Assembly: GCA_900315465.1 (NCBI GenBank)
Contig: OMZF01000101.1
Coordinates: 18,181-82,180, forward strand
Source: an uncultured Eubacteriales bacterium
GTDB taxonomy: Bacteria > Bacillota > Clostridia > Oscillospirales > Acutalibacteraceae
DNA length: 64,000 nt
Direction: 5' to 3'
Part shown: positions 34,783 through 60,351 of the stretch, piece after piece
Position numbering within the stretch: position 1 is the first letter of the stretch
Layout of the letters: each line of letters starts with the position of its first letter
Position numbers and translations under genes: made by a program
The notes under the pieces: model-generated
The model's database searches: none
Told to the model about the DNA's origin: nothing
Seen by the model: only the letters and a program-made list of their open reading frames with translations

Positions 34783-37700
34783 ATGAAAACAGCAATGTAC
34801 AGAAATGACATTTTCAAAAGAATAATATCAGGGTTATTAGCGGTGGTGATATTTTTTAATGCGGCACCGCTGGATCTTTCTGTCTTTGCGGATGATAACA
34901 CTACAATGATGGGGATCTATAATAACTTTATGGTCTCTTCGGCTAATTCCGAGCAGATGACGAAATACACAATAAAATATCTTAGAAAAAAGCAGATGAC
35001 TGATTCATCCGGAAACCCTGTCTACAATTCTGATGGCACCCCGAAATATCAGCCACAGTACGAAAAGGATGAAAACGGAGATATAATTTACATAGATGAA
35101 TATGTAAGGGATGCTGACAATAATATAGTGCTTGATGCAAACGGTGATCCTGTAATTCAAAGAGTACCAAAACCGCTTTTAGTAAATGATGAGATCCAGT
35201 ATGAAATTGAGGATTTTACGAGTTCTGATTTTTTTGAATATAATAATGGAGGTACATATACTTATATCGAAGCAACCGGAACTATAAATATGCATCCCGG
35301 TGAAACTCTGAATTTCTTGTCATCGAATGATTTTAAGGATTTCCTTATAAAAAATAGAATAGAGACCATAGAAGTAACCTATGATCCCGATAATGATGCG
35401 TTTCTTTATGATCCGGATAAAGCAGCAGATGCAGATGATCAGAGTCAGGCATTAGGCAATACTGCAGTAATGACTTACGATGTAAAAATCACAGAAAACC
35501 AGGATACACATGAAAAGAATATTGATGTTTCAGACTGTACAGCTATAACCTTTACATCATCTGACTATATTGATCTTGATGTTACTGTGAAGTGGGTGGA
35601 TGATGGTAATGGAAGACCAGATGTAACAGACTGGGATTTTGATGTAAAACGAAAAGCTTACGCACAAAATGAATCCATACCTGCTTACGATGCCTCTACT
35701 GATTATGATGCAAATTCATCTTATGAAGAAAGCGGAGCATTGGCAGGATATACCGATTATGAAATTGATGTTCCGACTCCTGATACAACAAGCAGTAATA
35801 CGCATATTTTTAATTACAAACTTCCGAGAGCAGCAAAAAACGGAGATACATTTGACTATATTGCAATAAATAATCATAAGAATTTTACTGATTCGGATTA
35901 TCAGGGAGTATCAAACCCGAAAGAATATCGCTATGAAAGAGCAGGAAAAGAAGAATTCAAATATTTCTGCAAAACACAGTTTACATTTGATATTTCATGG
36001 CATGACGATAATAACGCAATAAACAGCCGTCCGGATGTCACGAATGAAAATATCAAGCAATACATAAAAGATCACTTTGTGTTAAAAAACAAAAATACAA
36101 ATGAAACTATCGACCTTGATGATTATACTGTAAGTCTGACACAAAATGATGATGGTACATACAGAGTGACTGTTGACGGACTTGACGAGATAGATGATGG
36201 TTCCGGTTCGGCTGTAACATATTATCTTGAACAGAACTCCGCAGTCATAAAAACAAGTGATAGCAGTTCTTCTGATTATTATGCACTTACCGCACAGAAC
36301 TCAGGCGTACATTCAAGTGAATCTGATAAGATATATAACGGAAGTACAGCTGTATTACTTCTTTCGGGCGAAGATACATTCAGCGGTGAAGTTCAGTGGA
36401 AGGATGAAGCCCGCAAGACAGAAAGAGAATCTAAGAGTAATATAGCTAATTATGTATTGTGGCGTTATGTTGGTACTGATACCGATATGAAAGCACAGGT
36501 AGGTACATTCTCTATAGACGGAAATGCAGATAATTTTTCATATACAGATACAAATGGTGATTCTATCATTATTCCAAAATACGACGTAATGGGTCGTAAA
36601 TATGTTTATTATGCAAAGCAGAGAAGTTTTAAACTTTCCGGTTACGAGCATTCGTACATAGGAGGTACAAGTACCGGTGTTGCCGATAGTTTTTCAAACG
36701 ATGCTGTAATTCAATACAGACTTGCGGGAACTGTAAACTATGCTGTAAATGCCCACTGGATAGCGGCAGCACTTCAGGGCGGTACTGGTGAAGTAAGGTA
36801 TGAACTTCAGAGATATAACTCTGATACAAATTCATGGGAAGATGTTCCGCATGAAAAGACGAATCCGTCACAGTCAACCACCAACAAATCAGAACTTGTA
36901 ATAGATGGTTTTTCGGCTGAACAGACAAGCATCACAGGTGCATTTTATGAAGCTGATGACGATGTTTTGCCGACCAAATATGATGAAAACGGAAGTCTTA
37001 TTATATACCGCATTGTACAGACTTATGCTGACCGTACCGATCAGGGTGTGAGTGGAAATACACCATATGAGACTCTTATATCACTGGTTGTCGATACTGA
37101 AACGGGTGCATTTGAGACGGTGACCGTAGATGGTAAAAATTACTTACAGCTTACTAACGGAAGTACCCCACAAGATGCAAATGGTTTTGTTTATATTACT
37201 GTTGATGGTTTGAAATTCAAGGTAAGAGCTTATATTGATGACGGTACTGTAAGATTTGAGTATATTCTTTATGATGAGATTGACGTAGTTGTAAATAAAA
37301 ACTGGTCTGACCCCACAGTAGATAATATTCTGGATATATGGGGGTCAACAGTTAAAAATAAGCTTCAGGTTTTCGATTATTCAACAGGTGCATTTGTTGA
37401 TTGTCAAAACTATAATACGATATATCCACATTTATCCGAAATAATTGATGAATATGGTAACATAAATGTTAAAAGAAACGATATTGGTAAAAATGAAAGA
37501 GACGATGATACATCGTATAATGATGCTGATGATGAACACTATTCTATCAGACTTAAGGATCTTCCGATGTATGATGATCAAGGTCGTTTGAATAAATATC
37601 AGATAGTAGAGACATCAGTAACCAAAAAAAATGGGGAACAAATCCCAAGTAAGAAAGTATATTCATCCTCAACTTACATCCAAAAAGACGTTGATAACAA

Positions 37701-40700
37701 TGAACTTATAGTTTCCAACTCTTTTGTAGGTGACGGTGAGTCTATAAAATTCAAAAAGATATGGCTTGCAGACGGTGAGGAACAATATAAGACAAATATT
37801 GGTATTCAGGCATCTATCCGTGCGATGCCCCGACCTGACACAGATAAGGATACTGACTATGTGTCACCGAATTACAAACAGAGTATATCCGCAGTTGCAA
37901 ATAGGTTAAATAAAAGGAACGGCAAAACTAAAGGTCAGGAAGGGTATATAGATGTAACCGGTTGGGAAGATATAGAAAATACTACTGAGCTTGAGACATG
38001 GATTCTGCAAATGAAGCAGAAGATCTACGACGACTGGAAAGCTGCATATATTGACAATATTTGGGAAAGAGCAGATAAGTATATCGAAAACTCGACTGAT
38101 AAGCGTTACACATGGAAAAACGAACAGTTAAGTAGTAGTATATCATATGATCCTGAAAATTGGATAATAAATGGTTATACTAAAGAAGAAGATGAAATCA
38201 GATACGTCAATGTCGGGAGGTTGGCATGGGATTATATAACAAACAAAGCTAATCTTCCTACACGACCGGAAGATTATAATGATAATACACCTTCGATAAC
38301 TGCTGCAAAAACAAAAAATGAATGGCAACAGATGTCGGGACATAAGTATTTCCCATGGGAAAGCGGTTATGGCGGAATTGATGACATTTTCCCCGAACTT
38401 GATGAAAACAATCCGCAAAGCAGTCAGACAAATGTAACAGATTATCCTTGGCCGGAATATACTGGCAGTGGTTGGTCACGCAATGCAAATAATTTTACCG
38501 ATGTACTTCTTTCTGCAAATACAGAGAATGTAGGAAATAAATTAGACTTCACTTCAACAACTGATTATCCCAATATATCCACGACACAGAAAAATCAGTA
38601 CAGCACTTTTGTAAATAATGTAAAAACAGACAAAAAACTGCTTTCAACAGGTATAACGCTCAAAGAAGATAACACATGGGAAAGTGAGCTTGGAATATAT
38701 CCTGATTATAACAAGGGTACAGGAGACGGTCAGAGTCAGAATAATTATGATCTCCGTGATTTCAGGGAATATCTTGCTCCCGGTCAAAATTCGAATGGTA
38801 CTACGCAAAAAAGTGTTACATCACAGGAATTTATTGCAGTAAAAGATAATAACGGAACAGAAATAGAGCCTGTAAAGACTGCAAGTAATAAATGGGTAGA
38901 GGGTGCGAAAACCACTTATTGGTATCAGGGTGATGATCAGAGTCAGCAGCAAGCGGCAACGAACAGTACCGATATGCTTAATCAAAATGTCAGCTATATC
39001 AGTAATGGTAAAGACGTTATTGCATATTCATGGCTTGCAGGAGTGCTTAAAGCTACATATGAAGGCGGTTTGACACGTTATTATGCGGTTCAGGAGGTAC
39101 CTCAATATAAAGGTGGTACTCCGACTGATGAAAATCATAATAAGGGAATTTCCGAAATTACCTTTATGAACAACCGCTGTGGTGTTGTCAATTATCATGT
39201 ACAGTTCGACTGGAAAGTCGGTGATATGATAAAGAATGGAACTCTTAAAAAGCTTAAGTTAAAGTTGCAGGCTGATTATGGCAGCGGCTACACTGATTTA
39301 ATTATTGATAATAATCCTTATTTTGAAATTACCATTACAGAAGATCTTACTGACTATTATATTTATAATCTTCCTAAATACACAAATCTCGGTAACCTTA
39401 TCACTTACAGAATTTCGGAATACAGTATAAATGATGATATAGTATTTAATAATGATGTAAGTGATACCGTAAGGTTTGAAAAAGATGGTACAACATATCA
39501 GGTTGAAAGAGAAGATCTTGCTACACAATTTAATACTTCTTCAAACAGTGATGACTGTTACAATGTAAAATTTACCAACAGTCTTTCGGGTACTACACAA
39601 ACAACAGTTTATAAGGCATGGATAGATGACAGCAACGATCAGGGTACAGGCAGAAGACCTGAACTTTATATCCGTCTGTATCATCAGAGTGTATCCGATT
39701 TGAATGGAGTAACAACCATAAAACAGCCATTTGCACGTGCAGATCTCGGTAAGGACTATCTCTGGGAAGGAAGTAATTATACAGATATATGGACATATAC
39801 TTATCAGAATCTTGATAAATATGACGATGACGGTTATCCTTACACTTATTATGTAGAAGAGTTTCCCGGTGACTTGGCAGCGTATGATTATGTCACACAT
39901 TATTATAAAGGTCATATCGACAATGATGATTATGTTAATGTCAGCGGCAAGGTCATAAGGGAAATTACCGGTCTGAAGAATGTTTCTAATGAAAACGTAA
40001 ACGGTATTGATTCTCTTGCAATGGATGGTGACACTATTGTAAACAAGAGAAAAAAGGAAATTAACATACAAGGTACAAAAGTATGGCAGAATATTGCCGA
40101 AAGTTTGCAGAAGAAGAATTATCCGATAGCTGATATTTTCCTTTACAAGACAACAAAGCAGGCGAATATTACTACAGCTGAAAATGTTTATGCTGTTCCT
40201 ATGGGTCAGCTTGCAGGCAAAAAGTTGTATATAAGCCTCGATGGTCTTCCTGATAAGGACGAGGATAATAATTCGTATGTTTATCAGGTATTTGAGTGTA
40301 ATGCAAACGGCGATAATGAAACAAGTATTGAATTCAATAAAACAGGTGATGTTATTGAGTTCTCAAAGGATAATACAGGCAGTGTATTTTATTTCAAAAT
40401 AAAGAGAACCAAAACTACAAATAGTGATCCATCAACCACAACGACAGAATTGATAAAGGCGGAATCTGTAAGTACATATGTTGAATCCTCTGACGGTCAG
40501 TATAGTCTTATAGAGTATAATGAAGATGATGAAAATAAGAATAAGACCGAGCTTATCAATATCACCCAGATATTCAAAGGTGATGCTACTTTCGGTTTTG
40601 GCAGAGAGGGTACACTTAAAAAGAATAACAATGAAGTGCAGTATACAAGTCATGGAAATGCACTTTTTGATTATGTTGACGGTCAGAATGAAAAAGGATT

Positions 40701-43700
40701 ATATCTGCCTAAGTACGATGAAAGAGGTGCATTGATAAAATATTCAATGCGTGAGCGTGCGATAAACGGGTATACGTTCCATATCAGTGACCAGACCATT
40801 ATCAATGATTATACGGGCGGTGATAAGGTAAAAATCAAATTCCACAAAGATTGGAAAAATATGGTTGAGGATACCGCAAACGCATATCCTAAACTTGTAA
40901 TAACACTTCATCAGGCTTATATAGGAAAAGATTCTTCAAATGATATTCAGCTGAAAGATTATAAGACATATTCCAAGGTATTTTATCCGAATTCGGAACG
41001 TGCAAAAAGTTTTGAAGCAATATTCGGAGATACCGAAGACCTGAGAAAATATGCTCCTGACGGCAACGAATTCTATTATTATATCACAGAAAGAATGATA
41101 GATGCCGAGCATACTCCGGGAGATAGTTTGTCGAGTGATTATTACTGTGATTTCCAGAACACCTATATAGTGGCAAAGAAAAATGGAAACAGTTATATCA
41201 ATACACAAAACAATCAGGCACTTGATACTCAAAATTATAAAAAAGTATACCCCAGTGAAAATGATATAAAAATTTACAATGACAAAAATGATACTGTAAT
41301 GGGTGAGTACTGTGTATTCAAGAAAACAGAGTCCGATGGCGGACTTGAAAAACACAGCGGTATGGGTTTCATCTGTACAATAGAAGAAGTAATTCCAAAA
41401 GTAACGCATTACAAGGATGTTGACGGTAATTTATCTAATGTTGTTATTGCTGATAATAAGTATTATGATTCCAATAATCCGGATGGTATTGAACTCAGTA
41501 CAGATACACTTATAAACCAATACTTATCGGGTAAAAGTGTTGATTACCATGACGAAGATGTTATTGTAACAAACAGGTATCAGCCTGATATTGAAAACTT
41601 CCAGGGTCATATTACTGTAGATAAATCATGGAATAATCGTGATTCACAGGCTGAGAACAGTAAAAACAGCGAATTCGAGGAGATAAGCAACTATAAATTC
41701 ACCTTGAAGCGTAAAACAATGAAAGTAAAGGAAAAGAGTCTTTTCCAGATAGTAACAGGTGGATATTATTCCAACAGACCAAATGTGCCAAGGATTGTTA
41801 TTGGTGCAGGTCTGACAGACGGTGTATTCCAAATAAGCTATAATGATGCAAATGACAAACTTGTTACAGAGTGGGTAGATGAAAATGGACAGCATTACAT
41901 TAAATATGTAGATGATAGTAATCAAACAGTAACAGAGATTCTTGCTGAAAATGCAGAAGCACCTAAACACCCGAAGTTCTATCCTTACGGCTATGACGAT
42001 AAAAAACTTCAAAACTATGATGAAGCGATCCTGACCGAAGCAGATTATAAATATTATGCTTGTAAAATGGTTTTGAAGAAAAATGCTTACGGAGATATTG
42101 AAATACCTGTTCAGGTCAGAGTATATCCATCAAGTGAGGACAGACGAGTAGAAATATACGGACTTGCTATATATGCACAGGATGGTGTACCATATACATA
42201 CATCATAGAGGAGGTAGCAGCGTCTGCATATGAGGCATCACCGTTAAGGGCAACCCGTCAGATGGTTGTAGACCATGCTTCAACCGAAAATACAACAGGA
42301 TATGCACCTGTTAACAGTCTTTATACTGTACCTGTTGATTATGTACAGAGAGGAAAGCTATTTTTAAGGATTGAAGATTTGCCTAAAAAAGATGGCAGCA
42401 ATAATTCATATACCTATTCGGTAGAGGAATGTGATCAAAATGGTGCTTCTCTTGCAAAACAGTCAATAAATCTGCATTATGAAAATAAGGAAAACAATAA
42501 GGTTGCACTTGAACTTTCAAAAGAGTATGCCGATGATTACAGCAGAAAGCTTTATTTTAAGATAAAGCGTACAGCAGGCAATACAACAGAGTATCTGGAT
42601 GACGCAAGTAAAAAAGCAATAGTATATGACCGCTACGGTTCAGACAGCTTTGCACTTACGAATATATTAAAGACATTCGATCTGCGTCTGAACAAGGTGT
42701 TCGGAAGATGGTATACTGACAGCAACAATCAGAAAAAATACGAGGTTATTACCTCAGAAGACTATAGTCAGTTCTTCAATCAAAAGTATATTGACAGTCT
42801 TCGTTTCCAGATTCAGAGAAAGCTTACCACAGATTCACAATGGGAACCTTATGATTATAGAATGATGAGTTCTCAGAGCGGAAAAACAAGTGCTGATGCA
42901 GGCGTGATCAGCGGAAGTCAGCTAATTTATGATTCAGGTAATGGTACATATTACTTCAAATTCATAGATCTGCCGCTTTATAAGCCCGGCAGCTCACTTT
43001 TAGAGGAAGATAAGGTCTACGAGTACAGAATTGTTGAGTTTAATGAAGCTGAACTGGACGTGAATGTAAATGCGAAAGATCCAGCCACAACTCTGAGTGC
43101 ATTTTATCTCAAAGTAGGCAGGAAAACTACAGAAGGAAACACTGAACCTGAGTATCTGACAACCGGATTTACTGCAAAAATTCCGGGCGGCAGTGATCTT
43201 ACAGTAACAAATGGTGTCATAAGCGTACCTAATCCAGCTTCGTCAAATGCAAAAATAGCAATAGAAGGCTTGGATTTTAGCGATGTAAACGGAAAGAGCT
43301 ACATTTATGAAGCAGTTCAGTGTGATTCAAACGGAGATGTTACTTCACCTGAAACTATAGATATATCAGGTGTAAGGCTTGGCGTGTGGAAATCACAGGA
43401 TACAGAACACGTTGAAATGCATTATCCTCAGTATCAGAACGACATAAATAATGTAGCCTCCCAGACATCTCCATATACCAAACATGAAACATCTCAAACA
43501 ATCAAGGGTACTACTCAGAATGTCTATGTACGCAATATTTTTGAGTCAAAGTCCATAACACTTGATAAATACTGGGATGACGATAATAATGCGGATGGTT
43601 TGCGTCCTGAGAGTCTGCAGATACGTATTTATGAAAATGTTCCGAATTCCGGAAATAACGGAGCAGAATTTCTGCCTTCAACAAACCCTGTTGTAATAAA

Positions 43701-46700
43701 CAAAACACTGAAAAGCAGTGAAGAATGGCATAAGATAGTAGCACTGCCAATGTATTATTATAACGGTAAAGCACCGATAGCAGATCTTACATATTCTATC
43801 CGTGAAAAGACACTTGACGCTGTTGTTACAAATAACGGATATGTTCATACAGACTACGGTTATAAGAAGAAAGAAAATGATAATGTAACCAGAGTATCTC
43901 TTGCGGGCAAAGAAACAGCAAATGCTCCGTTCAAATTGCCCGGAGCTGACGGAACTGATACTCAGCCGCTGTATGGTGTATCATCAGAAACAGCAGTTAC
44001 TCCTATAAAAATAAGTGACGATGATTTCGTAGGCTTGTATCTTGAGAATACCAAGACGAGAGTAAACAGCGTTCTTACCTTTACAAAGGACTGGGATGAT
44101 GATAAATACAAAGCTGATTACAGACCCGATAATGTGTATGTAAAGATACTCCGCAACACGAAAAATACAGCAACTATTGATGACAGTAATATGTTTGTTG
44201 TTGACGGGCTGGTGAAAGACGAGGATACAAACATAATCATAAGAAATCTTGCTGAAAATTATGATTATCAGGTACTTATATGTACTTCAACCGGCAGTCT
44301 TATTGAAACAATTACACCAACTGTAACTACAGCTGACGGTGTAACTGAATGTTCTTTCACAACCAAAGTTACCGCAGAAAACCAAAAGTTATATTTCAGA
44401 CTCAGACAAAAAACCACGAACAGTAATAGTTACACAGTAGTAAATAAAGATATAAACGGTTCACGTCTGGTAGCAATCGTTGACAAATCAAATATTTCTC
44501 AGTCAGATGTTGTAAAAGCTGATAATCAGAATAATCCTGTGGGAATTGTTATCAACAGTACTTCCTATAATGCAGCAGGGGGAGTATATACTATTCCGGC
44601 TGGTAATGCAGCAAACGGATATAATACAGTTGTTATACAAAATCTGCTGAAAAAGAGCGGAAATGATGTATATAACTATAGTCTTGTTGATGAAAACGGA
44701 AATGCATTGAATGGTACAAATCCTAGCCTTACTCTTTATCAAAATGTTGACAATCCGAATAATTACAATGCGATGATTGTATATAACGGTACGGATGAGT
44801 TTAAGTTCAAACTAAAACAGAGACTTGGTGATGCACAAGCAACTGATGTAGGAGATTCTGCAAAACGTTTTATATCCGCAGATCAGACAACAGGTGTTGT
44901 AGAACTTCCTGTTGATAAGAATACGGATAAAGCCGATTACTACTTTGAAAATCTGAGCTACGGTACAAACGCTTCGGGTAACACTCAGATAAACGGTACA
45001 TGGTCACCGTATTACTATACTGTTGTAGAGTGTGACAGAAATGGTAATGATATTACCGCTGTTATGTCTGATACAAACACTCCGAAAAATGAAACAACTG
45101 ATTCAAAAATCAATGTATCTAAAAAGATAAAATTTACGATCAGTGGTCTTGAAAGCATAGCTGAATCAAAAACGTATATCAATCTTAAAATTACCCGTAA
45201 TGGCGGCTCAGCAACTGATCAAATAGTAGTATATGATGTAAATAACAGACCTGTACATATAACCTTGCAGGAAACTGTTAATGGCACAGATCAAACAGTA
45301 AACAATGAATATTACGCAAGCGTAGGCAGTGTAGTTTCAAATGGTATAATAGTAGTGCCGATTCCATCCAATGGCAGTAATATTACAGGCTATATCGAAG
45401 ATCTCCCTGTCGGTTATGAATACAACGGTACATGGAGCGAATACACTTATAATATTGTACGTTGTAAAGCAAACGGAGATAATCATGGAACACCTGTTAC
45501 GGTAACACCATATCCATTAAAATGCGAGTACGAATATGAACCATTGTATACCGATCTTACATTTACCAAAACATGGGATTCATCAGCTTCTGATTACAAG
45601 CTTCGTCCTTCCGAAGTATATTTCAAACTTTACAGAACTTATGATGGTGCAACCGGTGCTGATGCAGATGAATTGGTAACAACTTTCGGTGATAATACGG
45701 CTCTTACGGCAAAGATAAATGATGCAGTTCATAATATTTCTCCTGAAAATGGTTATTTCACCTTACCCGTATCATCAGATTCACTCACAGTCAGCTTTGA
45801 GGGATTGCCAAACGGAAAAGTTGTTGCAGATGGTCATGGTAACGGCATATGGAAAGAGTATAAGTATTATATCAAAGAAGTTGATTCAAATAATACAGAT
45901 CTTGCTTCCACAAGCCCGTATGAATGGGAACAGAAAAAAGGTGTTGAAAAGCCATTCAACATTACCAAAGTCAGCAATTATTATACAAAGGCAACTCTTT
46001 CAGAGGGTATTGAAAACAGTATTATCAAAACTGAACATAAACTTGAAAAAACATGGTTTGATGAAGATAATACCTATGATATTCGTAAGAATTATGTGGT
46101 CACTCTCCAGAGACGAGAGGGAGATCATGGTAACTGGCAAAATGTAGATCTGAGCGGTACAGAAATAACTGCCAAAGAAAAATCAGATGGTACTCCCGTT
46201 AGTTTGAACGCTGAGGGAACTAATCATGAACTTTTGAATCTGACAAAAGATAAATTATATGCTGTTGTTTCAAATCTTCCTAAATACAGTTCATCAGGTA
46301 ATGAATATACATATAGATTTATTGAAGCATCAATAGGCGGAAATGATGTAAAAGGCAATAATGCGTCACTGGAAGAAAATTACCTTTTCCACATTCCCGG
46401 AAGAAATGGTGCGGAAACTTCATATGTTACACAGTGGCATACAGGTACAAAAGATTATAGTGTAGATTATGATTATAATACTACAGCAACAAGCAAAGTT
46501 ACAAACAGTGTTGTAACAAATGCTGTTTCATTTGTATCGGTGTCTGCTAATTTGAATTGGGTAGATGAATGGAATCTCTACGGAAAACGTCCTGAAAGCG
46601 TTACATATAAACTGTGGAGAACCAAAACTACTATTACAGATACCGGAAAGAATGATTCTGACGGTAACAAGATATATTACAGAAGTGAGCCTGTCATAGA

Positions 46701-49700
46701 CGGTGATTTCAAAAACTATGTGACTGTAGACGAAAGCGAAGCCAAAGACTGGAAACATGAATGGAGTACATGTGCGGCATTTGATGATAAGGGTAATGAA
46801 TATGATTACTTTGTAGACATATACCTCAATAATCAAGACGAGGTCATTCCGTACTATGAATCATCAGGTACATCTAATATTGGTTATGATGAACACGGTC
46901 ATATTGCAAAGAAGTATGTATTTACAGAAACATATAATCCTCCCAGAAAGAGTATAACCGTTTCAAAAAAGTGGAACGATCAGGAAAATATTTTCGGGTA
47001 TCGTCCAAATGATATTACTGTGAATTTATCATGTAAATATGAAGTTACTGAAGAAATCTATACCGAAAAGCAGAATGATAATACAGTTAAGGCTTACTAC
47101 ATAAAAGAAGGCGATAAGTATTATTACAGCGGGCCTTTGAGCGGTCTTTACAGTATAGTAAATAATGACACATATACTGCTTATTCAGAGGGAAGTACAA
47201 AAACATTAACTTCAAACGATAGCTGGGCTTATAAATCATTTGATGGTCTTCCGGCATGGGTGAATCCCACAGGAACGGCACGTACAAATGGTGAATATGT
47301 AAGAGTAACATACTACCTTACAGAAAATTGTCCGGCAAACTACACGTGCACTACTGCCGATCCTATTTTACTTATAGATACCGGTATGAGATATGACAGC
47401 AAAAGTGCGGATGTTAATAATCAAGGTATTATAACAATACCTGTGAACAGTTACTTTAAAGATGGCAATAATGTTAAAGCTATGATACCGCATCTTTCGG
47501 AAAAGGATTCATACGGTAATACGTATGTTTACACAATAACCGAAGTTGATTCCGAGGGAAATGCTGTCAGCAGCTCTGATATGAGTGCGACTAAAAACGA
47601 AAAGTACGATATTTCACATGATAATGAAATAGCGTATGACATTTCAAAGCCTATCAGCATTGAGTCACCTCCCGATAATATTTATGTTAAGGTTACAAGA
47701 GCTCACAAGGTCAGTGAAACTAAAACCTGTACAATTAATAACACTAATACAATAACCCCGTCTGAGACCTGCTCTGTTGTTAATTCACAGGTAGTAATGG
47801 TTCAAGTACCAAAAGATACAAGTACAATTTTAACATTTGATGTTGCAAATCTACCGGCACAGAACAACGGGCATAATCTGACTTATAGTGCGGAGCTTGT
47901 TGATTATGAAGGTAACGTTCAGCCACAAGATGATGTTACTTACACATCATCAGTAACTGATAGTATTACTTTTTCAGTAACCAAGAGTAATATATCGACA
48001 GACACCACAAGACCTGAGCATCTTTTCTTTAAAATCAAAAGCAATTGCAGTTATACAGAAACTGAAACTGTTAAAAAGGACTTCAGCAATCAGGATTTGA
48101 AAGCTGTGGTATTTAAGGAAGAACCCGATGTAACAAAAGTTACAAATACAGATAATCCTGTTTTGCTCGAAGTTCCTGAAAACAGAAGCTACACTTTTGA
48201 AAACACCCTTATAACCCGAGATGTAGTTGTTGTAAGGAATTGGAACGATAACGATTACGCTTCCGAAAAGGGTGCTGCTCAGCAGACTATCCTCAATGAT
48301 ATGCATTACAATCAGAAGGTTGTACTTACATCAGATGATTTCGGTAGTGCGGTAACAGGTCGTCAGATTACAGAAGGTGCTTACACCGGCTTCCAATACA
48401 GCGAAAGCAGGGTAATAGGCAGCAGTGAAAATGCCGTTGTATTCAAAAATCTTCCTAAGTTTAAGGCAGATGGTAAAACAGAGATCAGTTATAAGCTGTT
48501 TATGGATAAAACAACTGATGCAGAGTCAACCGGAACAGATGTTTATACCGATACGCTTCCGACAGAAAACGGAACAAAAATAACCAATATTGCTGATTCT
48601 TACAGATTCGGTACACCAAGTGCAAATGGTTCTAAAGAATATGGTTATGATTCCGACTGTTATGTTAACCAGGGAGATACATTGACAAAGTATACTATTA
48701 TCAATGAACTTCCTCTTACAGCTGTGGATGTTATAAAGACATGGGACGACCGGAGTAATATCTTTAAACTCAGACCTGCAGTTCCTGTAGCACATAAAGA
48801 CTCTAACAATAAAGTTACTACTGTTGACCCTGACCCATTGGGAATGACTTTGACGACAACCACAACGCCGTCAATTGATAATTCTTGGGCAGCACCTCAG
48901 TCATATATATTAAAGGACAGTGTTCCGACAGATAATAACAATGACACATGGACTTACTCATATCAGAAGCTTTTGAAGTATAATAAGAATAATCAGCATT
49001 ATTACTTCAAAGCAGACGAGCATTTTATTGAACAGTATGTAAATGAAACTGCGAAAGTTGGGGATACATCCTATACAGCCACAGATAATTTGTATACTGT
49101 TCCAGAGAAGGATGTTCAGAATACATATTGTGTAGTATTTGAGAATCTGCCAACAAAAGACGATTTTGGCAGAAGCTATACCTATATTGCAGAACGTTGT
49201 AAGTCTGATGGTACAGCGGCAGACACACAGAATTTGACAGTTACTACAACAGATACAAATACTGTAATTTCGGGTACAGCTGATACAAATCCGGATAATA
49301 ATTCTGAATATCTGTATTTCAAACTGAAACGCAGAAGTTCTCACCTGATGGATTATAATGATCCGAGCTATACTAAACATAATTTCTCACAAATTTCAGA
49401 GGTAGAAGTTGCTAACCATATTTATGACGGCGTACATGCTCTTTCGACACAGCTTACGCTCACAAATGCCCTTGATACCCGTACAGTTACTGTTAAAAAG
49501 GATTGGTATGATAACGATTATGATAGTACGTTAGCAAGTGATCTCCATTATGATCTGGATATTACTTTGAGCAGTCCTACACTTGAGTGTACTGATAATG
49601 ATAAGAAGGATAATTCCGGAAAGTACAAAGAAACAATTAAGCTTACAAAGGGTAATACCACAGGTGTTACATTTACCGGGTTGCCGAAGTATGATGCAAG

Positions 49701-52700
49701 CGGTGATGTAATAGTCTATAATGTCCGTGAGGATGCTAATCCCAAAAACACCTCTCCGGCTGCTGACAGGGCGGCAGTTAATATTACAAAGAAAACCGAA
49801 GTAACAAATTACGATCTGGAAACAGCCCCGAAATTCACAGACGGTGACAGACATTACGGTTATGTGGGAAGTGCGGTCTATACTGCGGAAAATGAGGGAA
49901 CAAAGAATTATCTTTCACAGGTAGACATCACAAATACTCTGCCGCTGACGGCTGTTAAGGTTGTTAAGCACTGGGATGATTTCAGTAATAAGTATAGTAT
50001 CAGACCAAGCAGCATTGATCTGAAACTTACCGCAAAAACAACAAATGATGGCTCAACGTGGGTTGACCCTGCAAATGACAGCGGAAATCACTATTTGTCT
50101 AAAACGTCTATGACAACACCTACTATTTATACATCAGCCGGAGATGACTGGACATATACCTATACAAAGCTGTTGAAGTATGATGTAAAGAACTTACCTT
50201 ATAGTTTCAAGGTAGAGGAGACATTTACTTCACCTGCTACGAGTGTAACAGGCTATACTGCTCCGAAGTATTGCAGACCGAGTGAAAATGATAACAATCG
50301 ACAGACTGTTACAGGAGATGCTCTTGATACTTTGTCATCAGGCAGTACATGGGATGGAAATACAGCACTTTCAACTCCTATGGAACTTACTAATAGCCTT
50401 GACACAAGAGATATTATCGTAACAAAGACATGGGCTGATAATGGCTATACAGGTACTGATACTCACTATAATGTTAAAGTAACACTTGATGCTGATAACG
50501 ATCTTACGATCAAGGAAAAGACAATAGGGGCTACAGTTGACGATTTAGCTTGTAATGTAGACGCTGCAACAGGTCTTATTACGGTCAATGTTCCTGCAAA
50601 TACAACCAAAAGTGTTGTAATTGGAGGTTTACCGAAGAAAGATGAATCCGGTGCAGATTATACCTATACTGTTGTTCAGTGTAATAACATAGGTGCACAA
50701 ACAGGCACACTTACACCGACAATAAATCATTCCGGTGATTATAATGTAATTACTGTATCGGTTAATAACAGCGAAGCCCAAGCTTCAGATTGTTATATCA
50801 AAGTAAAGAGAAACACCACCGAAACCGTCAGACGCATACCCGACAATACTGCTAATGCATACACTGATTCTCAGATAATCAGTAGTCGTGCGGGCAGCGG
50901 CTACAGTGTTGTATTCAAAGATGTACCGAAATACAAATCAGACGGTACTGCATATATATTTAAATTGACAGAAACACCGTCCGATGCCGTAGCAGATGCA
51001 AGCACAATCGGTCAAACATCAGGAAGTACAGTGGTTAATTCTCATGAATTTACTGTTTCAGCTACTCGTTTCGGTTATACAGGTACTTGTAAGAAAAAGA
51101 CAAGCGGAACAGGCAATAAGGCGTATGTTGAGCAGTACGACATCACAAATACTCTGCCTGTATACGCTTTCAATGCAGATGTTGAGTGGGATGATGATAA
51201 TAACCGTGACGGTAAGCGTCCAACAAGTGATAATCTTTCGGTAATTCTAAGCAGAAGAATTGGTACTGGCACTAAGTCTACAGTAGCAACTGTTAGTACT
51301 AAATCAGATGCAGACAATAAGTGGAATTACACCCTGACGGGTGCTGTTCCGAAATATTCGGAAAGTAATGTTCTTTATATTTACAGCATATCTGAGAATG
51401 ATTTCACAAATTACGGAAGTTATACAAGAAAGTATTCAAAATCAATAACTATGGTTGCATCCGGTTTACCGACCAACAATAGTGCTGAATCCGGAACGAA
51501 TGAAGTTTCAGATATGAATACAACAACAACTGATACTGTTGCAACATTCCATATCAAAAATGAATATATTCCAGAAAAGGGAAGTATAACAATCAATAAG
51601 ACATGGGCAGGTGAAACATTAGAAGGGCATGATTACCGTAGTGTTGCACGACCGAATGACCTGACAGTTACTTTAAAACGAAAGTATCAAGGTGAAAATG
51701 ATACTGTAACAGAAGAAACCGTTGGAACATATAATGGGTCATGGACTAAGAATGATGATACATGGTCATTAACTATAGAAAATCTTTATCTCAATACAAA
51801 TCCGACCGCTGATAAAGTTACTAATGGTGCTTCAAAGGTTTATACATATTATTTTGAAGAAACTGTACCGGGAGGATATACGGTAACATATAGTCAAACT
51901 CAAAATACAGGTGTTAATCTTGTAAAAGATGGTACTGTTTATATGGGTGCAACGAATACCCTGAACAAAAAAAAGGTGAAATTCTATAAAGAGTGGGACG
52001 ATAGTAACTATTCTGATAGAGATCATATTCACTATGATGTTACAGCGGATATAAAACTTAATGGTACTGTAGTAAAGAATGTTACTATACCAAATGGAAA
52101 TACCACAGGGGTTGAAGTTGAGCTTCCGGAAAATATCGGAGGAACAGCAACAAGTTATACTCTTACAGAAACAAATATCAAGTATAATTATAACCCGACC
52201 TATAAAGTAGGCAATAGTGGTTCATATGATGCAACAGCTACATTCAATACCTCAGATAATTCTGTAACTATCAAAAACAGTCTACCGCTTGTAAGATTCA
52301 TAGTTCATAAGGACTGGGATGATGACAGCAACCGTGATAATAAGCGTCCTGAAAGTCTGACATTTACTCTTACACAAAACGGTAATTTAATCAAAAGTGA
52401 TATTACAACTTCCCCCGGAGGATGGACTTCTGATTATACGCCATATTATCTTGTATATGACAAAAACAATGCAAAGTATACTTACAGCATAACAGAAAAT
52501 GATTTTGCTAATAAATCAACTGATTATGCAGGTTCACCGATGTCAACAGTAATATCAGCTCCTGTTATAAGCGGTAATTTGACAGAATACACCTACACAT
52601 TCACCAATAAAAAGGTAACAACTTATAAAGGCGATTTGCAGGCAAACAAGAAATGGGACGGAGATGAAACACATAAAGAATACACCCGCCCAGCAAATGT

Positions 52701-55700
52701 AACTGTTCAGCTTTGGTGCAGTTATAATGGCGGGGAGCCCATTTACGCAGCTAATGCTGATTATGTAAAATCTTTTGTTGGTTCAGAATATGTTTTTGAG
52801 CAAACACTTAATTCCGACAACATTTGGTCTTACACATTTAAGGATCTTCCGCTTTATATGAATGATGGCGGTACGGACAGTGTTCATCCCGAAACAAATG
52901 GTGAACAGAATAATGGTACCTTCTATCAGATTACTTATTACATTATGGAGAAGGATACCAACACAGGTGGTCTGACGGGTTATGATACCTCTTATTCCAA
53001 CACCGGAGCTATTACCAAAACAACCTATTCTTACAATGATGTTGGTGTTCAGCTTGAAAATGGTGATGATAAGAGTATAAATGTCATCAACACCCTTAAG
53101 ACAACCTCAGTTACTGTTAATAAGGCGTGGTCAAACAACAGTTGTCCTGAGACATTGGCTGAAGATAGATATAATGTAAATATCAGCGTTACATCAACTG
53201 ATATTGCTTCTTATAATCAGACCAAGCTAACAACCAATAATACTGTAACTTTTGATGGACTGCCTCTTTATAAATCTGATGGTACGGCGGCAGAGTATAA
53301 GATAGAGGAACTTACCACAACGCCAGAAAATCCGCATAAGTATAATTTTACACCGAGTTACAGCGTTACCAATGGTCAATTTAAACCTACAGCAACTCAC
53401 CAAATAACCGTTACAAACACCCTCCCAATAACAGAGATAGTGATAACTAAGAACTGGCTGGATAAGTTTGAAAATCTTGATTACAGCAGTTTCAGACAGA
53501 CTGTAAACTTTGAAATTCAACGCAGGACGGATGGCACTAATTGGGAAACATTACCGGAAGTTTACACTGCAAGTATTCCAGAATCAAAGGATAATGCTAA
53601 TAACAAGTGGACATATACAATATCAAATCTTCTGAAATATGATGTGAATAATAAACCGTATATGTTCAAGATAAAGGAACTCCCTGTAAACGGTTACGAG
53701 AGGACAAGCCCGGCAGATACAGACACTATTACCGAAACTGCCGCAGCTGACAGTCATTCATTTGCCTTCACAAACAGGTTGTATACCCGTGATATTACTG
53801 TGAATAAAAAGTGGGATGACAGCGGATATACACCGCAAAGCGGAGAAAATCTGCATTATGACATTGATATTACTCTCAGCAAGGATGCTGTGGACAATGT
53901 CAATCCGGCAATAAGCTATACAGGAAAAATTAATGCAGGTACAACTTATGATTCTACACAAGTTGTCAGCGGTGGAAGTGTAATATTCAAAAATGTTCCG
54001 GTATTCGACAAATCAGGTGCAGTTATAGAATACACTGTTTCAGAAAGCCCCTGCAGAGCAAATGAAAGTGCAGAAGTTACGACTCCATACGGTTATTATC
54101 TTGTAAGCGGTTATCCGACAAGTACGAATACAACTGTTAATAGTCAAAGTTGCATTAGTACCTACACATTCCAGAACAAACTCCCCGTTGTTAATATTCC
54201 TGTCACAAAGACATGGAATGTTGATACAAAATATCACACATATCAGAAGAGCAATGTAACTGTTCAGCTTAAACGTGAGAGTACAAACGAATCTCAAAAA
54301 CAGGTTGACGAAAAGGCAATAGAACTAAGCAACGGAACAAATGACAGTTATACATTCTCAAATCAGCTGAAGTATGATGCAGAGTATAACGCTTATACCT
54401 ACAGCGTAACAGAAACTAAACTTGAGGGTTTCAATGTGAGTTATTCACCTCAAAATGTAACAAGTACAGATAATTCACTTGCTCTCGGTGTAACAAACAC
54501 AATGATAACGGGTGATGCGGAAGTAAGGAAAATCGACAAATATATTTTTAATGTTGACAATGGAGTTGAAATTCCTGTATCTGATGCATATTTTGAACTG
54601 TATCAAAAGGATTCATCTAATAATAATGTATATGTAAATGTCCGTTTGCTTAGTGAATCAGATGATGATGTAGGAGAGAATAAAACTTATCCTGCATCTT
54701 ATGTCGGTTACTATGTCATCGACAACAGAACAGGAGCAAGTAACCATTATGTCAAATCCGGCAGTGACGGTTATATCAAATTCAAGGATCTTCCTTTAAA
54801 TAATTACTATCTCAAGGAATGTGAAGGTAGCAATGATACTCCACTTCCGACAGGATTTGTGCTTAATACAGAGGAATATCATTTTACTGTTGGAGTTGAA
54901 AATGCTGCAGCAACTGCCTCAACAACATCGTATTATACCGGTGATAATAACGGTACGCCTTATGGATTTATAGTAAGCAAAGACAACCAAAACCGTATAG
55001 GTAATGAAGAAAATGTACCGCAGGTCGTTATCGGAATACAAAAAGTCGATGCTGAGGATAATACAAAAACTCTTCAGGGTGCGTCTTATCTCGTACTTCG
55101 TATGAAGCATTTTGAGAACAGGACAACTGGTGAAACCTCAGAAGATGATTTTATTGCAAATGCAAAAAAATCTGTTGAAGAAAGCGGAAGAATATATTCC
55201 GAAGATAAAGCTATTGCGAAGTATTGGAACAAAATAGGTTCAGGAATAACTGATTCGGAAGGAAAGTTTATTATTAACAATAAACTTGATGGAACGGATA
55301 TTATATTTGGTACGTATGCATTCCTTGAGGTTCAGGCTCCGATAGGTTATGAATGTACTTATGACCGGAATTATCCAAGAACAGATTCATATGAAGGTAA
55401 TGACTTGTATGTTGAAGTTTCTGCTACACAGATGACACCTCCTGTGATAGTTCATGAGAACCCCCGCAAGAGTACACAGTTAGACATCCTCAAAACCGAT
55501 GAATTCGGTGATCCTCTCAACGGGGCAGAGTTTGAGCTGTATTACAGATCGACAAAGACAAAGGAAATAAAGACCTATTCTTATGATTATAAGGCAAATG
55601 GTACGATTGCCACTCCTTCTGTCAGTGGTGTTCAGGCTATTCAGCCCAGAACTGATCCAGACTATATCTACAAAGATAATTATATAAATGGAAATCGTTG

Positions 55701-58111: not shown

Positions 58112-58918
58112 ATGAATACTAATATAAAAGAGGTAAAAAAGAAGAAACGCTCTCCTGCACTTCTTACAACGATATTGTTGTTGTTTTTGCTTATAGTTAT
58201 ACTTGTCACACTTGCGTTTTTCACATCGTTTGATGAAGTGACCAATGCATTCACAGGAGCGAGGATAGATATAATCCTGACCGAGCCGAAATGGAAACCG
58301 AATGATGCACTTAATATCGTACCCGATACAACACTTGACAAAGACCCGTATGTAACAAACAACGAAAACATTCCTACATATGTTTTTCTCAAGGTTACAG
58401 TACCGGCTGTGAAGTATAAGTATGATCAGAGTAGTGGTGCTACTCAGGGAAGTATGGCTTATGACGGAACATCTGCTTACGTTCCGATTTATAAGTTTAT
58501 AAATTCTGATGGTACAAATAACGAAGAAACTGATATTTCAAAAACAAATCAGAAAGTCAATGATGGTTGGAAACTGGTTTCATTTACTTCTCCAAGTACA
58601 GAACAAAATCCAAGACTTATTAATGGTGATGATTCAACAAAGGCAGCATATGAATATGTTTATTACTATTATGGCAGTTCTGCTGCAACCACAATAACCG
58701 CACTTGACCCACATACCCAAACAACAAAGCCCTTGTTTGATAAGGTACATTTGCTCAACTTCCGAAATTATGAAGCTACTACAAATCCATATAGCATTAA
58801 TCGTGATTACAGTATTACAGTTGAGGCATACGGTATACAGGCGAATTATCTTTCAGACGGCAATGGCACATTGACTACTAACGACCCTGAGAAAATATGG
58901 GAAATATTAAACAGCTGA
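58112..58918 (+). CDS. TasA/CalY/camelysin-like secreted protein with SipW-type signal-peptide motif (paralog 1)
   Basis: Basic N-terminus, TM helix, then AFFTSFDEVTNAFTGARIDIILTE. Later PTYVFLKVTVP, YEYVYYYYG, PLFDKVHLLNF and ITVEAYGIQAN follow the TasA-family strand pattern. RBS GGAG. Confidence 0.7.
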   Translation: MNTNIKEVKKKKRSPALLTTILLLFLLIVILVTLAFFTSFDEVTNAFTGARIDIILTEPKWKPNDALNIVPDTTLDKDPYVTNNENIPTYVFLKVTVPAVKYKYDQSSGATQGSMAYDGTSAYVPIYKFINSDGTNNEETDISKTNQKVNDGWKLVSFTSPSTEQNPRLINGDDSTKAAYEYVYYYYGSSAATTITALDPHTQTTKPLFDKVHLLNFRNYEATTNPYSINRDYSITVEAYGIQANYLSDGNGTLTTNDPEKIWEILNS

Positions 58919-58932
58919 AAGTGAGATGAACA

Positions 58933-59700
58933 ATGATGAAAAAGAAAAAGCAATTTTTTCGTGGCGTAATTATAGGCACAGCACTTATTGTTCTTCTGGC
59001 TGCAAGTTTAACAACATCATATCTTACTGACAGGGAAATAGCGTATAATATTGTTACCATCGGAAATGTTGAGGTAACTATTGACGAAACTCCTTTTGAC
59101 CCGACAAGCAGTTATCCGGCAGATGCAGGGACTGTTATCGGAAAAGCTCCTAAGCTTAAAAATGAAGGAACTACTGACGAGTATGTATTCATTAAAGTTT
59201 CAGTTCCGAAGAAGGAAGTTACTTTTTTGGATGAAACCACAGGAAAAAAAGATGGAAATACTAATCCAAGAACAGGTGAGATATTCAAACTTCTGACAAA
59301 TGATACAGGTACAAAGTTGACACAAGATATTAATAATACTGCTCTTACAGACGTAACTTTTTATTATCACAAAGGTGATAATAGTAACAGTGTTGACGGT
59401 TGGTATTTAGTTTATACTACCGCAGCAACGGTTAATTCTGTTGATTATAACGTCTACACTTTCGGTTACAATAAAAAATTGAAACCAGGGGATTCAACCA
59501 AAACTCTTTTTGACAAGATACAGTTAAAGAGTATTATTGACACGGAAGTAAAGGGAGATGTGTCAATCCAAGTCGGAGCGTATGCAATACAATCTGATGA
59601 ACTGAATCTTCCAGGGATTGAGAATGATTACGAGGGACATTTGTCTACTACAAATGTAGAAACAATATACAACATCGTAAAGAATAAAGGTGGGGTGTGA
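58933..59700 (+). CDS. TasA/CalY/camelysin-like secreted protein (paralog 2)
   Basis: TM helix, then TTSYLTDREIAYNIVTIGNVEVTIDE. GKAPKLKNEGTTDEYVFIKVSVP, TLFDKIQL and IQVGAYAIQSD. Confidence 0.7.
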   Translation: MMKKKKQFFRGVIIGTALIVLLAASLTTSYLTDREIAYNIVTIGNVEVTIDETPFDPTSSYPADAGTVIGKAPKLKNEGTTDEYVFIKVSVPKKEVTFLDETTGKKDGNTNPRTGEIFKLLTNDTGTKLTQDINNTALTDVTFYYHKGDNSNSVDGWYLVYTTAATVNSVDYNVYTFGYNKKLKPGDSTKTLFDKIQLKSIIDTEVKGDVSIQVGAYAIQSDELNLPGIENDYEGHLSTTNVETIYNIVKNKGGV

Positions 59701-59706
59701 TGTGAG

Positions 59707-60351
59707 ATGAAAAAGAAAATCATATTTGTTCTGAGCATCACAGTACCATTGATGATATTGCTTACGATTGGAATAACTATTGCATATCTGAGTAACAAAC
59801 CTGATGATGTTACAAATACCGTCAGCGTTACGGAGGGTAAAGTAAGTATAGAAGAATCATTTCCCGTAGTTTCCGAGCAGTCGATGAATAATGAATTTAC
59901 AAAAGAAGTTCAGATAAAAAACACAGGTACAACACCGTGTTTTGTGCGTGTGTTTGTTGATTTTTCGGATAGTACAATCCGTGATAATTCTAAAACTAAG
60001 ATTGTAAAAGCAGATGGAACTACTCAAGTAACTTGGAGTGAATTCATTGAGAATCCAGGAACAAATTGGGAGTATGTTTCAAATGACAATGATAAGCTCA
60101 ACGGATATTTCTATTATAAAAAAATATTAAATGTAGGGGGATCGACTGATTACCTGTTGAGAAAAGTTTTTGTAGATTACAGAGCAAATGATGAAGACAG
60201 CAATATCGACAAGATAACTGATTTTGAAATGATAGTGTATGCAGAAACTGTTCAGACAACTGAAATTACTACGGATGGAACGTCTAAAGTATATACTGAT
60301 TCAGATTGGAAAACCGCTTGGGAAAGTTTCCTTAAAATACCTACACCATAA
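59707..60351 (+). CDS. TasA/CalY/camelysin-like secreted protein (paralog 3)
   Basis: TM helix, then IAYLSNKPDDVTNTVSVTEGKVSIEE. KEVQIKNTGTTPCFVRVFVDF, YFYYKKIL and EMIVYAETVQT. RBS GGTGGGG. Confidence 0.7.
   Translation: MKKKIIFVLSITVPLMILLTIGITIAYLSNKPDDVTNTVSVTEGKVSIEESFPVVSEQSMNNEFTKEVQIKNTGTTPCFVRVFVDFSDSTIRDNSKTKIVKADGTTQVTWSEFIENPGTNWEYVSNDNDKLNGYFYYKKILNVGGSTDYLLRKVFVDYRANDEDSNIDKITDFEMIVYAETVQTTEITTDGTSKVYTDSDWKTAWESFLKIPTP

Follow-up and report, generated by a model that had tools for sequence, protein, structure and literature searches.

The 64,000-nucleotide window analyzed here (positions 18,181 to 82,180 of contig OMZF01000101.1, assembly GCA_900315465.1, from an uncultured Eubacteriales bacterium) carries an open reading frame (ORF) encoding a giant protein of 7,743 amino acids (aa), identified by ORF and domain scans at 34783..58014; this and all coordinates below are window positions on the + strand. 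The protein contains 11 copies of a module that recurs among its relatives, numbered here in order along the sequence. Several of these copies interrupt "host" domains of the Cna_B family (PF05738), which is typified by the B-region repeats of the S. aureus collagen adhesin (1D2O/1D2P). We conclude that the module is probably a compact, Cna-B-derived sandwich that has its segments in swapped order, folds by itself, and occurs either in tandem arrays or as an insert in the loops of other domains.

An eleven-copy, family-wide repeat

A first reading of this DNA from its letters, made without database searches (the original prediction), described 11 in-frame copies with a shared order of motifs. 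The 11 copies all start in frame 0 of the giant ORF, and their openings agree with the sequences quoted at that time. Alignment of the 11 copies with MAFFT gives the order G.Y[TA][VI]P, a hydrophobic strand, LP.KD, Y.Y.V.E[C], D.NG, a variable stretch, and YFK[IL]KR. This order persists in an alignment of 47 sequences that includes copies from relatives, with the consensus T.P...I..LP..D..G..Y.Y.V.E.D..G...T...L.V.K...YFKL.R; the consensus thus does not vanish in a proper multiple alignment. Each copy scored 21.0–60.9 bits with a hidden Markov model (HMM) built from the ten others, compared with 7.8–13.3 bits for the best of 500 shuffles per copy. When the 11-copy HMM was run over the whole protein, the copies scored 56–95 bits and the next best stretch 17.8 bits. 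Mean pairwise identity among the copies is 24%, and pairwise BLASTP aligned several pairs end to end (copies 1 and 2, expectation value [E] 3e-14; 10 and 2, 1e-12; 11 and 1, 4e-9; 10 and 11, 2e-7; 10 and 9, 1e-5). The alignment, the leave-one-out scores, and the whole-protein scan together bear out the prediction: the 11-copy repeat is real and family-wide.

Two generalizations about the copies needed correction. Most share the full motif order, but copy 3 lacks the terminal YFKIKR strand and copy 4 lacks the G.YTVP start. Likewise, the module cannot strictly be said to lack the KxWxD..RP start of ordinary Cna-B domains, as the C-terminal parts of three copies retain remnants of that start: copy 7 keeps KTWD..LRP within a canonical KTWDSSASDYKLRP-SEVYFKLYR, copy 9 carries TRPEHLFFKIKS (with TRP ahead of its last strand), and copy 2 carries SKEYADDYSRKLYFKIKR (SKEY.DD..RK).

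An exhaustive search of 1.84 billion representatives identified 146 relatives of the protein, many of them giant (individual relatives are designated P0001, P0002, and so on). The module profile found 61 further full-length matches in 28 relatives; 45 of these matches are true modules, and several of the giant relatives that carry them come from rumen metagenome-assembled genomes of Ruminococcus type. The relatives' modules were taken from first-round HMM matches only, after removal of canonical junctions. In distant proteins, the complete module HMM also aligns over its whole length to junctions between ordinary Cna-B units, and on iteration it drifts into such junctions, reaching 629 full matches by round 3. 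Word-indexed protein searches with the copy 11 host plus insert (1e-5) or with the 47-module alignment (1e-6) returned no relative. The protein family is rare and very divergent.

A Cys at a fixed motif position had been counted in seven copies; the alignment places it in eight (copies 1, 2, 3, 4, 6, 7, 10, and 11). Across the 47 copies this column holds C in 20, Y in 14, T in 5, and V in 3. Copy 2 contains no other Cys, and the alignment shows no further conserved Cys column. We considered the Cys as a mark of a thioester, a disulfide, or a cross-link and ruled this out from the C/Y/T/V alternation and the single Cys of copy 2. Judged by its column, the Cys is neither essential nor a conserved functional residue; obligatory Cys chemistry of any kind, disulfide and thioester included, is unlikely in the module, and the residue is probably free, buried, and interchangeable with Tyr. 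The positions that serve isopeptide formation in Cna-B domains were inspected in the same 47 copies. Of these, 31 retain the Glu of Y.Y.V.E and 27 retain the Lys of V.L.V.K, and strand 4, which aligns to the canonical closing strand, has the consensus [IL]-T-x-T with no Asn- or Asp-enriched column. A conserved isopeptide inside the module is unlikely on this account and was rejected, and because no Asn/Asp partner is conserved, the module is unlikely to form an isopeptide bond of its own.

Swapped-order relationship to Cna-B and insertion into host loops

No Pfam or NCBIfam family covers the module at its curated cut-off, and NCBIfam yielded no match at all, consistent with its description as unclassified. 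The only recurrent Pfam match is to Cna_B; it is sub-threshold, confined to the first half of the module and to profile positions ~37–81, and reaches E<=1 in 20 of the 47 copies (best E 1.5e-4). Scanned singly, the window copies score 14.8–16 bits against Cna_B (copy 10 gives no match), compared with a gathering cut-off of 22.3 that the hosts pass.

Profile comparisons recover both parts of a Cna-B domain, in swapped order. When the 47-module profile was aligned with hhalign to 53 ordinary Cna-B units from distant relatives, module columns 2–60 matched canonical columns 28–87 (probability 95%, E 2.2e-8), with 56 aligned columns spanning the LPKYD hairpin, the Y.Y.V.E strand, and the closing strand. 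The predicted likeness of the LPxKD..YxYxVxE part to the C-terminal half of Cna-B is thereby upheld. The last 32 module columns were compared on their own with 300 canonical KxWxD..RP segments and align over their full length with the register kept (P 0.0011): V.L.V.K falls on the Lys-bearing first strand, K to K, and YFKLKR on the strand after RP, in agreement with the proposed correspondence between YFKIKR and the N-terminal RPxxVxVxL strand. A secondary hhalign alignment places module columns 69–96 on canonical columns 1–35 (E 0.43), and an HMM of the C-terminal part matches, after the modules themselves, almost only canonical ..TKTW..RP..VYFKLYR stretches. Because both parts align to Cna-B in swapped order, the module bears the sequence signature of a circular permutation, and it is homologous to the back of one Cna-B unit joined to the front of the next. 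On these alignments, the module is Cna-B-derived with its segment order swapped relative to Cna_B; it does not follow the collinear order of that family, in which a K-containing strand comes first and the closing TN strand last.

Apart from the swapped similarity of both segments, a circular permutant is expected to leave tandem-duplicate intermediates, and these are present as the array of copies 4–7 and as the matches of the module HMM to ordinary junctions. The array (copy 4, aa 3135–3213, 44185..44421; copy 5, aa 3267–3349, 44581..44829; copy 6, aa 3371–3473, 44893..45201; copy 7, aa 3521–3620, 45343..45642) is headed by a canonical A–B strand start, TFTKDWDDDKYKADYRPDNVYVKILR (KDWDDD..RP..VYVKILR; aa 3095–3130, 44065..44172), and closed by an ordinary C-terminal half (GYFTLPVSS..FEGLPNG..YKYYIKEVD..FNITKV; aa 3656–3745, 45748..46017). 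Transitional forms with the full KxWxD..RP are found in copy 7 and in P0011, P0015, and P0007. The suggestion that the module is a circularly permuted relative of Cna-B therefore holds for the swapped-order homology of both parts, but not for every copy. Copies 4–7 do form an array, as had been proposed, but its phase and copy boundaries are arbitrary, and it could be read equally well as a plain tandem array of a compact Cna-B subfamily. Copy 3 (aa 2811–2913, 43213..43521), in which the first half of the module is present, is preceded by A/B-like strands of its own (ELDVNVNAKD..AFYLKVGRK, aa 2757–2781, 43051..43125, with AFYLKVGRK ~30 aa upstream) and so is in canonical rather than swapped order. 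A search of the literature for natural CnaB permutants turned up no relevant work, which does not establish that none exist.

At the position of the copy 4–7 array, P0001 has a single domain in canonical order (~aa 2230–2340; KLWEDYENKWKERPDEIYVMIQRK...GVITIS...LPYGE...YIYKVVECDSNG, read by eye) that shares the E-C-D-x-N-G hallmark, and the module subfamily may plausibly have arisen from it.

The remaining copies were compared with relatives in which the flanking host sequence could be located. Copy 1 (aa 1801–1879, 40183..40419; HMM and flank comparison) is a solitary insert after strands A–B of a host at aa 1757–2015 (40051..40827; K in TKVWQN, E in YSMRE, N in TIIND), and its flanks are 17–20 aa apart in P0008 and P0004 versus 128–133 aa here. 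Copy 11 (aa 5264–5347, 50572..50823) occupies the same place, also as a solitary insert, in a host at aa 5207–5460 (50401..51162; K in VTKTWAD, E in FKLTE, N in DITNT), with flanks 4–41 aa apart in six relatives versus 112–141 aa here. Copy 2 (aa 2512–2600, 42316..42582; HMM, flank comparison, and AlphaFold2) is a solitary insert ahead of the closing strand of its host (aa 2275–2632, 41605..42678; K in VDKSWNN, E in YTYIIEE, N in FALTN); the flanks lie 8–39 aa apart in six relatives versus 125–146 aa here. Copies 8 (aa 4215–4307, 47425..47703) and 9 (aa 4336–4424, 47788..48054) share the last loop of one host (aa 4055–4480, 46945..48222; K in SKKWND, E in YYLTE, N in TFENT), a site that measures 25–51 aa in P0045, P0001, P0002, and P0009 versus 265–287 aa here. 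Copy 10 (aa 4769–4854, 49087..49344) is a solitary insert in the loop ahead of the closing TN strand of its host (aa 4645–4900, 48715..49482), and the flanks are 6–8 aa apart in relatives versus 111–112 aa here. Copy 3 shows a similar difference (32–54 aa in relatives versus 158–182 aa here, an insertion of ~120 aa).

Because the host flanks are contiguous in relatives at all of these sites, the additional sequence reads as true loop insertion, and by this comparison copies 1, 2, 8–9, 10, and 11 are true insertions into complete Cna-B domains. Their positions, after the second strand for copies 1 and 11 and ahead of the last strand for copies 2, 8–9, and 10, confirm the placements originally proposed for copies 1, 10, and 11. 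Across the family, about half of the copies are inserted into loops. The site of copies 8–9 is empty in some relatives, and in P0008 it spans 670 aa that cover four modules; loop arrays thus grow and shrink, and this variation in copy number points to duplication as a means by which the surface diversifies.

The host of copy 10, the sole host family that we aligned, was compared with 22 uninterrupted counterparts. K8, W10, D12, R20, P21, E102, and N251 are invariant in the 23 sequences, and the insert forms one block ahead of the closing ..ITN.L strand. The profile of this family matches PDB entry 1D2P, the S. aureus Cna B repeats, with an E of 8e-12; the host is of genuine Cna B type. Two uninterrupted Cna-B domains directly downstream (aa 4903–5055 and 5056–5208, together 49489..50406) are paralogous to the hosts of copies 11 and 10. 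Such an arrangement agrees with the literature, which states that the loops of CnaA and CnaB folds can accommodate inserted domains (PMC12617251).

Predicted fold and competing explanations

AlphaFold2 was applied to copy 2 (aa 2510–2604) with the 47-module alignment. The resulting model has a mean predicted local distance difference test score (pLDDT) of 88 and a predicted template-modeling score of 0.75, with six strands at residues 4–7, 16–25, 33–41, 54–59, 64–72, and 81–89. The YFKIKR strand is assigned as paired beta structure, and its 10-residue block averages a pLDDT of 92. The module is therefore predicted to fold alone as a closed six-strand sandwich. Structure prediction had been proposed both for single copies and for a host with its insert, to be followed by a Foldseek search; the single copy gave this confident sandwich, whereas the other two parts were less informative, as described below.

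We propose that the module is a compact, self-folding beta-sandwich of ~85–95 aa whose ancestor would be a Cna-B stalk domain of the collagen-adhesin B-repeat type; the inserted piece would measure ~110–125 aa because some 25–45 residues trail the last strand. In this scheme, the module would be an out-of-phase excerpt of a tandem pair from a compact Cna-B subfamily with the hallmark Y.Y.V.E[C/Y]D.NG, taking the C-terminal strands of one unit and the first two strands (V.L.V.K ... YFKLKR) of the next, and would thus amount to circular permutation by duplication. The subfamily occurs in two ways: in tandem arrays, where phase is arbitrary (copies 4–7 and most copies in relatives), and as single or double units in loops of complete Cna-B domains (copies 1, 11, 2, 8–9, and 10). 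The Lys, Glu, and Asn positions for the host isopeptide flank the insertion, so that load would pass through the host and its cross-link and leave the insert as an unloaded side decoration. The insert could plausibly serve to add exposed surface or to vary it, in adhesion or in evasion. The most specific form of this proposal, in which a loop-insertable, circularly permuted Cna-B family without an isopeptide lets giant rumen-bacterial adhesins grow side branches, as single units or as variable arrays, from isopeptide-clamped stalk domains, is offered tentatively, as a possibility short of probable.

Several observations weigh against the proposal. The phase is untellable for most copies, since 37 of the 56 true modules (11 here and 45 in relatives) lie in arrays. 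Pfam Cna_B runs collinearly across the host start and the first half of the module in copy 11 (residues 7–92 on profile positions 3–66, 29.9 bits, above the cut-off) and in copy 1 (residues 6–93 on positions 1–77, 19.4 bits, below it). The evidence for the C-terminal half of the permutation, given by the P value and the secondary-alignment E above, is modest. Foldseek searches of the PDB and of the viral database BFVD with the copy 2 model gave no match at E <= 1e-3, and the best weak PDB matches are immunoglobulin (Ig) C1-set constant domains (template-modeling [TM] score 0.45–0.52, probability up to 0.96, E >= 0.08). The AlphaFold2 model of host plus insert is poor (pLDDT 53, with 31–47 in the module region); it was built with a hosts-only alignment, as MAFFT either superposes the first half of the module on host strands D–E or stretches fragments across the whole length. 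In the copy 2 model, a turn of four residues connects strands 4 and 5. Canonical Cna-B has its first and last strands parallel to each other, and a simple permutation would not give such a turn; the fold may therefore have been rearranged and not be an exact permutant. Finally, the three-dimensional permutation, the nesting and side-branch geometry, the load bypass, and the function are inferred.

The most serious alternative is that there is no permuted domain at all and that the module is a phase-shifted reading of ordinary consecutive Cna-B domains, an explanation we consider unlikely. On this account, the first half of each module would complete the preceding A–B strands and the last part would start the next domain, copies 1 and 11 would be sequential chimeras, and the arrays would be plain repeats. 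The collinear Cna_B matches of copies 11 and 1 fit directly, as do the canonical head and end of the copy 4–7 array, the full KTWD..RP ahead of the last strand of copy 7, the spread of the module HMM to ordinary junctions, the consistent superposition by MAFFT of the first half on host strands D–E, and the preponderance of modules in arrays. On sequence alone, two sequential chimeric domains are possible for copies 1 and 11. The same reading fails for copies 2, 8–9, and 10, because these lie between the sixth and last strands of their hosts, with no A–B strands of their own ahead of them and, instead of a C-terminal half, only the host closing strand behind. Moreover, relatives that lack the unit have the complete host in one uninterrupted piece, and the prediction for the lone module is a closed sandwich of high confidence in which the last strand is paired.

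It is very unlikely that the module is an independent Ig-like or FN3-like domain whose likeness to Cna-B reflects convergence on a beta-sandwich pattern. The C1-set domains are the best fold matches and, in a PDB sequence search with the module profile, the sole notable match was 9vel_C 'Gp6.1' (residues 309–370, E 1e-4), whose Y.Y.V....G...V.LT.T.P....Y.KVYR matches the second two thirds of the module in order and resembles an FN3-type junction; a literature search on 'Gp6.1' found no paper. HMMER with the module profile does not reach 1D2P in the PDB. The C1-set matches, however, are sequential, not significant, and unaccompanied by any sequence relation, and none reached an E of 1e-3. Cna-B ancestry is favored by the hhalign match, whose 56 columns against canonical Cna-B take in LPKYD..Y.Y.V.E, by the transitional forms with the full KxWxD..RP, and by the Cna_B matches of 20 copies out of 47, with no fn3 or Ig entry among the 25 families matched by most copies. 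No Cna-B domain appeared among the top 50 Foldseek matches, and a positive control on the poor host-plus-insert model failed; because Foldseek aligns sequentially, a missing Cna-B match is what a permutation would give, though this is not proof. A compositional or low-complexity artefact, which the biased composition of this repetitive protein, rich in Thr, Asn, and Asp, and the low identity among copies might suggest, is hardly credible given leave-one-out scores above those of same-composition shuffles and the same module in independent relatives.

Known systems, relatives, and gene surroundings

The module shares with Cna_B the blocks W/Y.Y.F..LP.YD..G..Y.Y.V.E, a K-containing first strand, a loop and a hydrophobic second strand, an all-beta character, and a place in a Gram-positive surface protein. 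It differs in that its blocks are swapped, the conserved Asn for a Lys–Asn isopeptide is lacking, the window copies, when scanned alone, score below the Pfam cut-off, and the model has six strands. Nested pilus adhesins (S. pneumoniae RrgA, S. pyogenes Spy0125/Cpa) likewise carry a folded domain in a loop between host isopeptide residues. To our knowledge, inserts in CnaA or CnaB loops are adhesive (vWA, thioester) or ordinary isopeptide domains and occur in short pilins, whereas the insert here is a rearranged Cna-B that occupies several loop positions, forms arrays of variable length, and resides in a 7,743-aa non-pilin protein. The fibrillar adhesins and giant stalk proteins of Firmicutes are likewise very long secreted proteins with dozens of Cna_B and SpaA-type domains (PMC8286594); their stalk domains are normally arranged end to end, whereas several bear side inserts here.

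The module family does not amount to a fundamentally new class of fold, some of the pattern is plain tandem repetition, and the finding opens no long-standing question. Should the permuted, self-folding unit in loops be borne out, it would add a family to the catalogue of adhesin stalk domains and provide a clear natural case of permutation by duplication with the tandem intermediates still in the same gene. Giant fibrillar adhesins would then gain lateral surface while the load path stays in the cross-linked hosts, so that a load-bearing fiber would acquire surface and become neither longer nor weaker. SpyTag/SpyCatcher-type tools are based on Cna-B domains, and a Cna-B variant with neighboring termini would be a natural scaffold for loop insertion that could interest protein engineers.

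The giant protein begins with a signal-like hydrophobic segment. Pfam, run on two halves of the sequence, assigns Cna_B in 16 stretches and four SpaA-type prealbumin-like domains, and a scan of the whole protein gave no other family at E 0.1. We looked for an LPXTG motif at the end of the protein and saw none. The C-terminal domain (aa 7380–7743, 56920..58011) is kept in all complete relatives and bears the motifs AWG[DT]PTFIFK, EPG.YEV.E..VSRY, and YYDKFSH; it has no match in Pfam or NCBIfam. A scan with the family alignment found relatives of this domain in rumen metagenome-assembled genomes labelled Ruminococcus, Acutalibacteraceae, and Ruminococcaceae, and a genome scan with the giant protein's own C-terminal domain alone found no relative. 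The neighboring genes are chromosomal housekeeping and sporulation genes (SpoVAD, DnaE, HtpG, and FtsK), with a G+C content of ~0.38. Together with the relatives of the C-terminal domain, this makes a Clostridia member living in the rumen the probable source of the DNA.

The C-terminal thirds of six relatives (P0002, P0003, P0004, P0006, P0007, and P0008) contain large extra blocks between stalk domains that are absent from the window protein, with repeated motifs 'DYIYF(T/K)..W....H.Y.YF' and 'WDD.HI.F.D'. P0003 also has a divergent module-like piece of ~100 aa (aa 6972–7050; EGLYTIPVTEKN..LSFKLQYS) within a SpaA-type domain that is uninterrupted in the window protein (aa 7221–7330). With 5.8 bits from the module HMM, its assignment as a module is tentative.

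A long W/Y/N-rich stretch lies at aa 1000–1450 of the giant protein (~37780..39130; for example, WEDIENTTELETWILQMKQKIYDDWKAAYIDNIWERADKY). It shows none of the marked Cna-B motifs and no Pfam match at E 0.1, and it may be a functional region outside the stalk. Directly 3' of the giant gene are three small ORFs (58112..58918, 58933..59700, and 59707..60351), each with a membrane segment at its N-terminus. They have no Pfam match, and their NCBIfam matches lie below cut-off: the SipW-dependent signal peptide TIGR04088 (17.8 bits versus 19) and the BsaA-family SipW-dependent biofilm matrix protein TIGR04090 (41.6 versus 60). The three ORFs may constitute a TasA/BsaA-like matrix-protein set linked to the adhesin.

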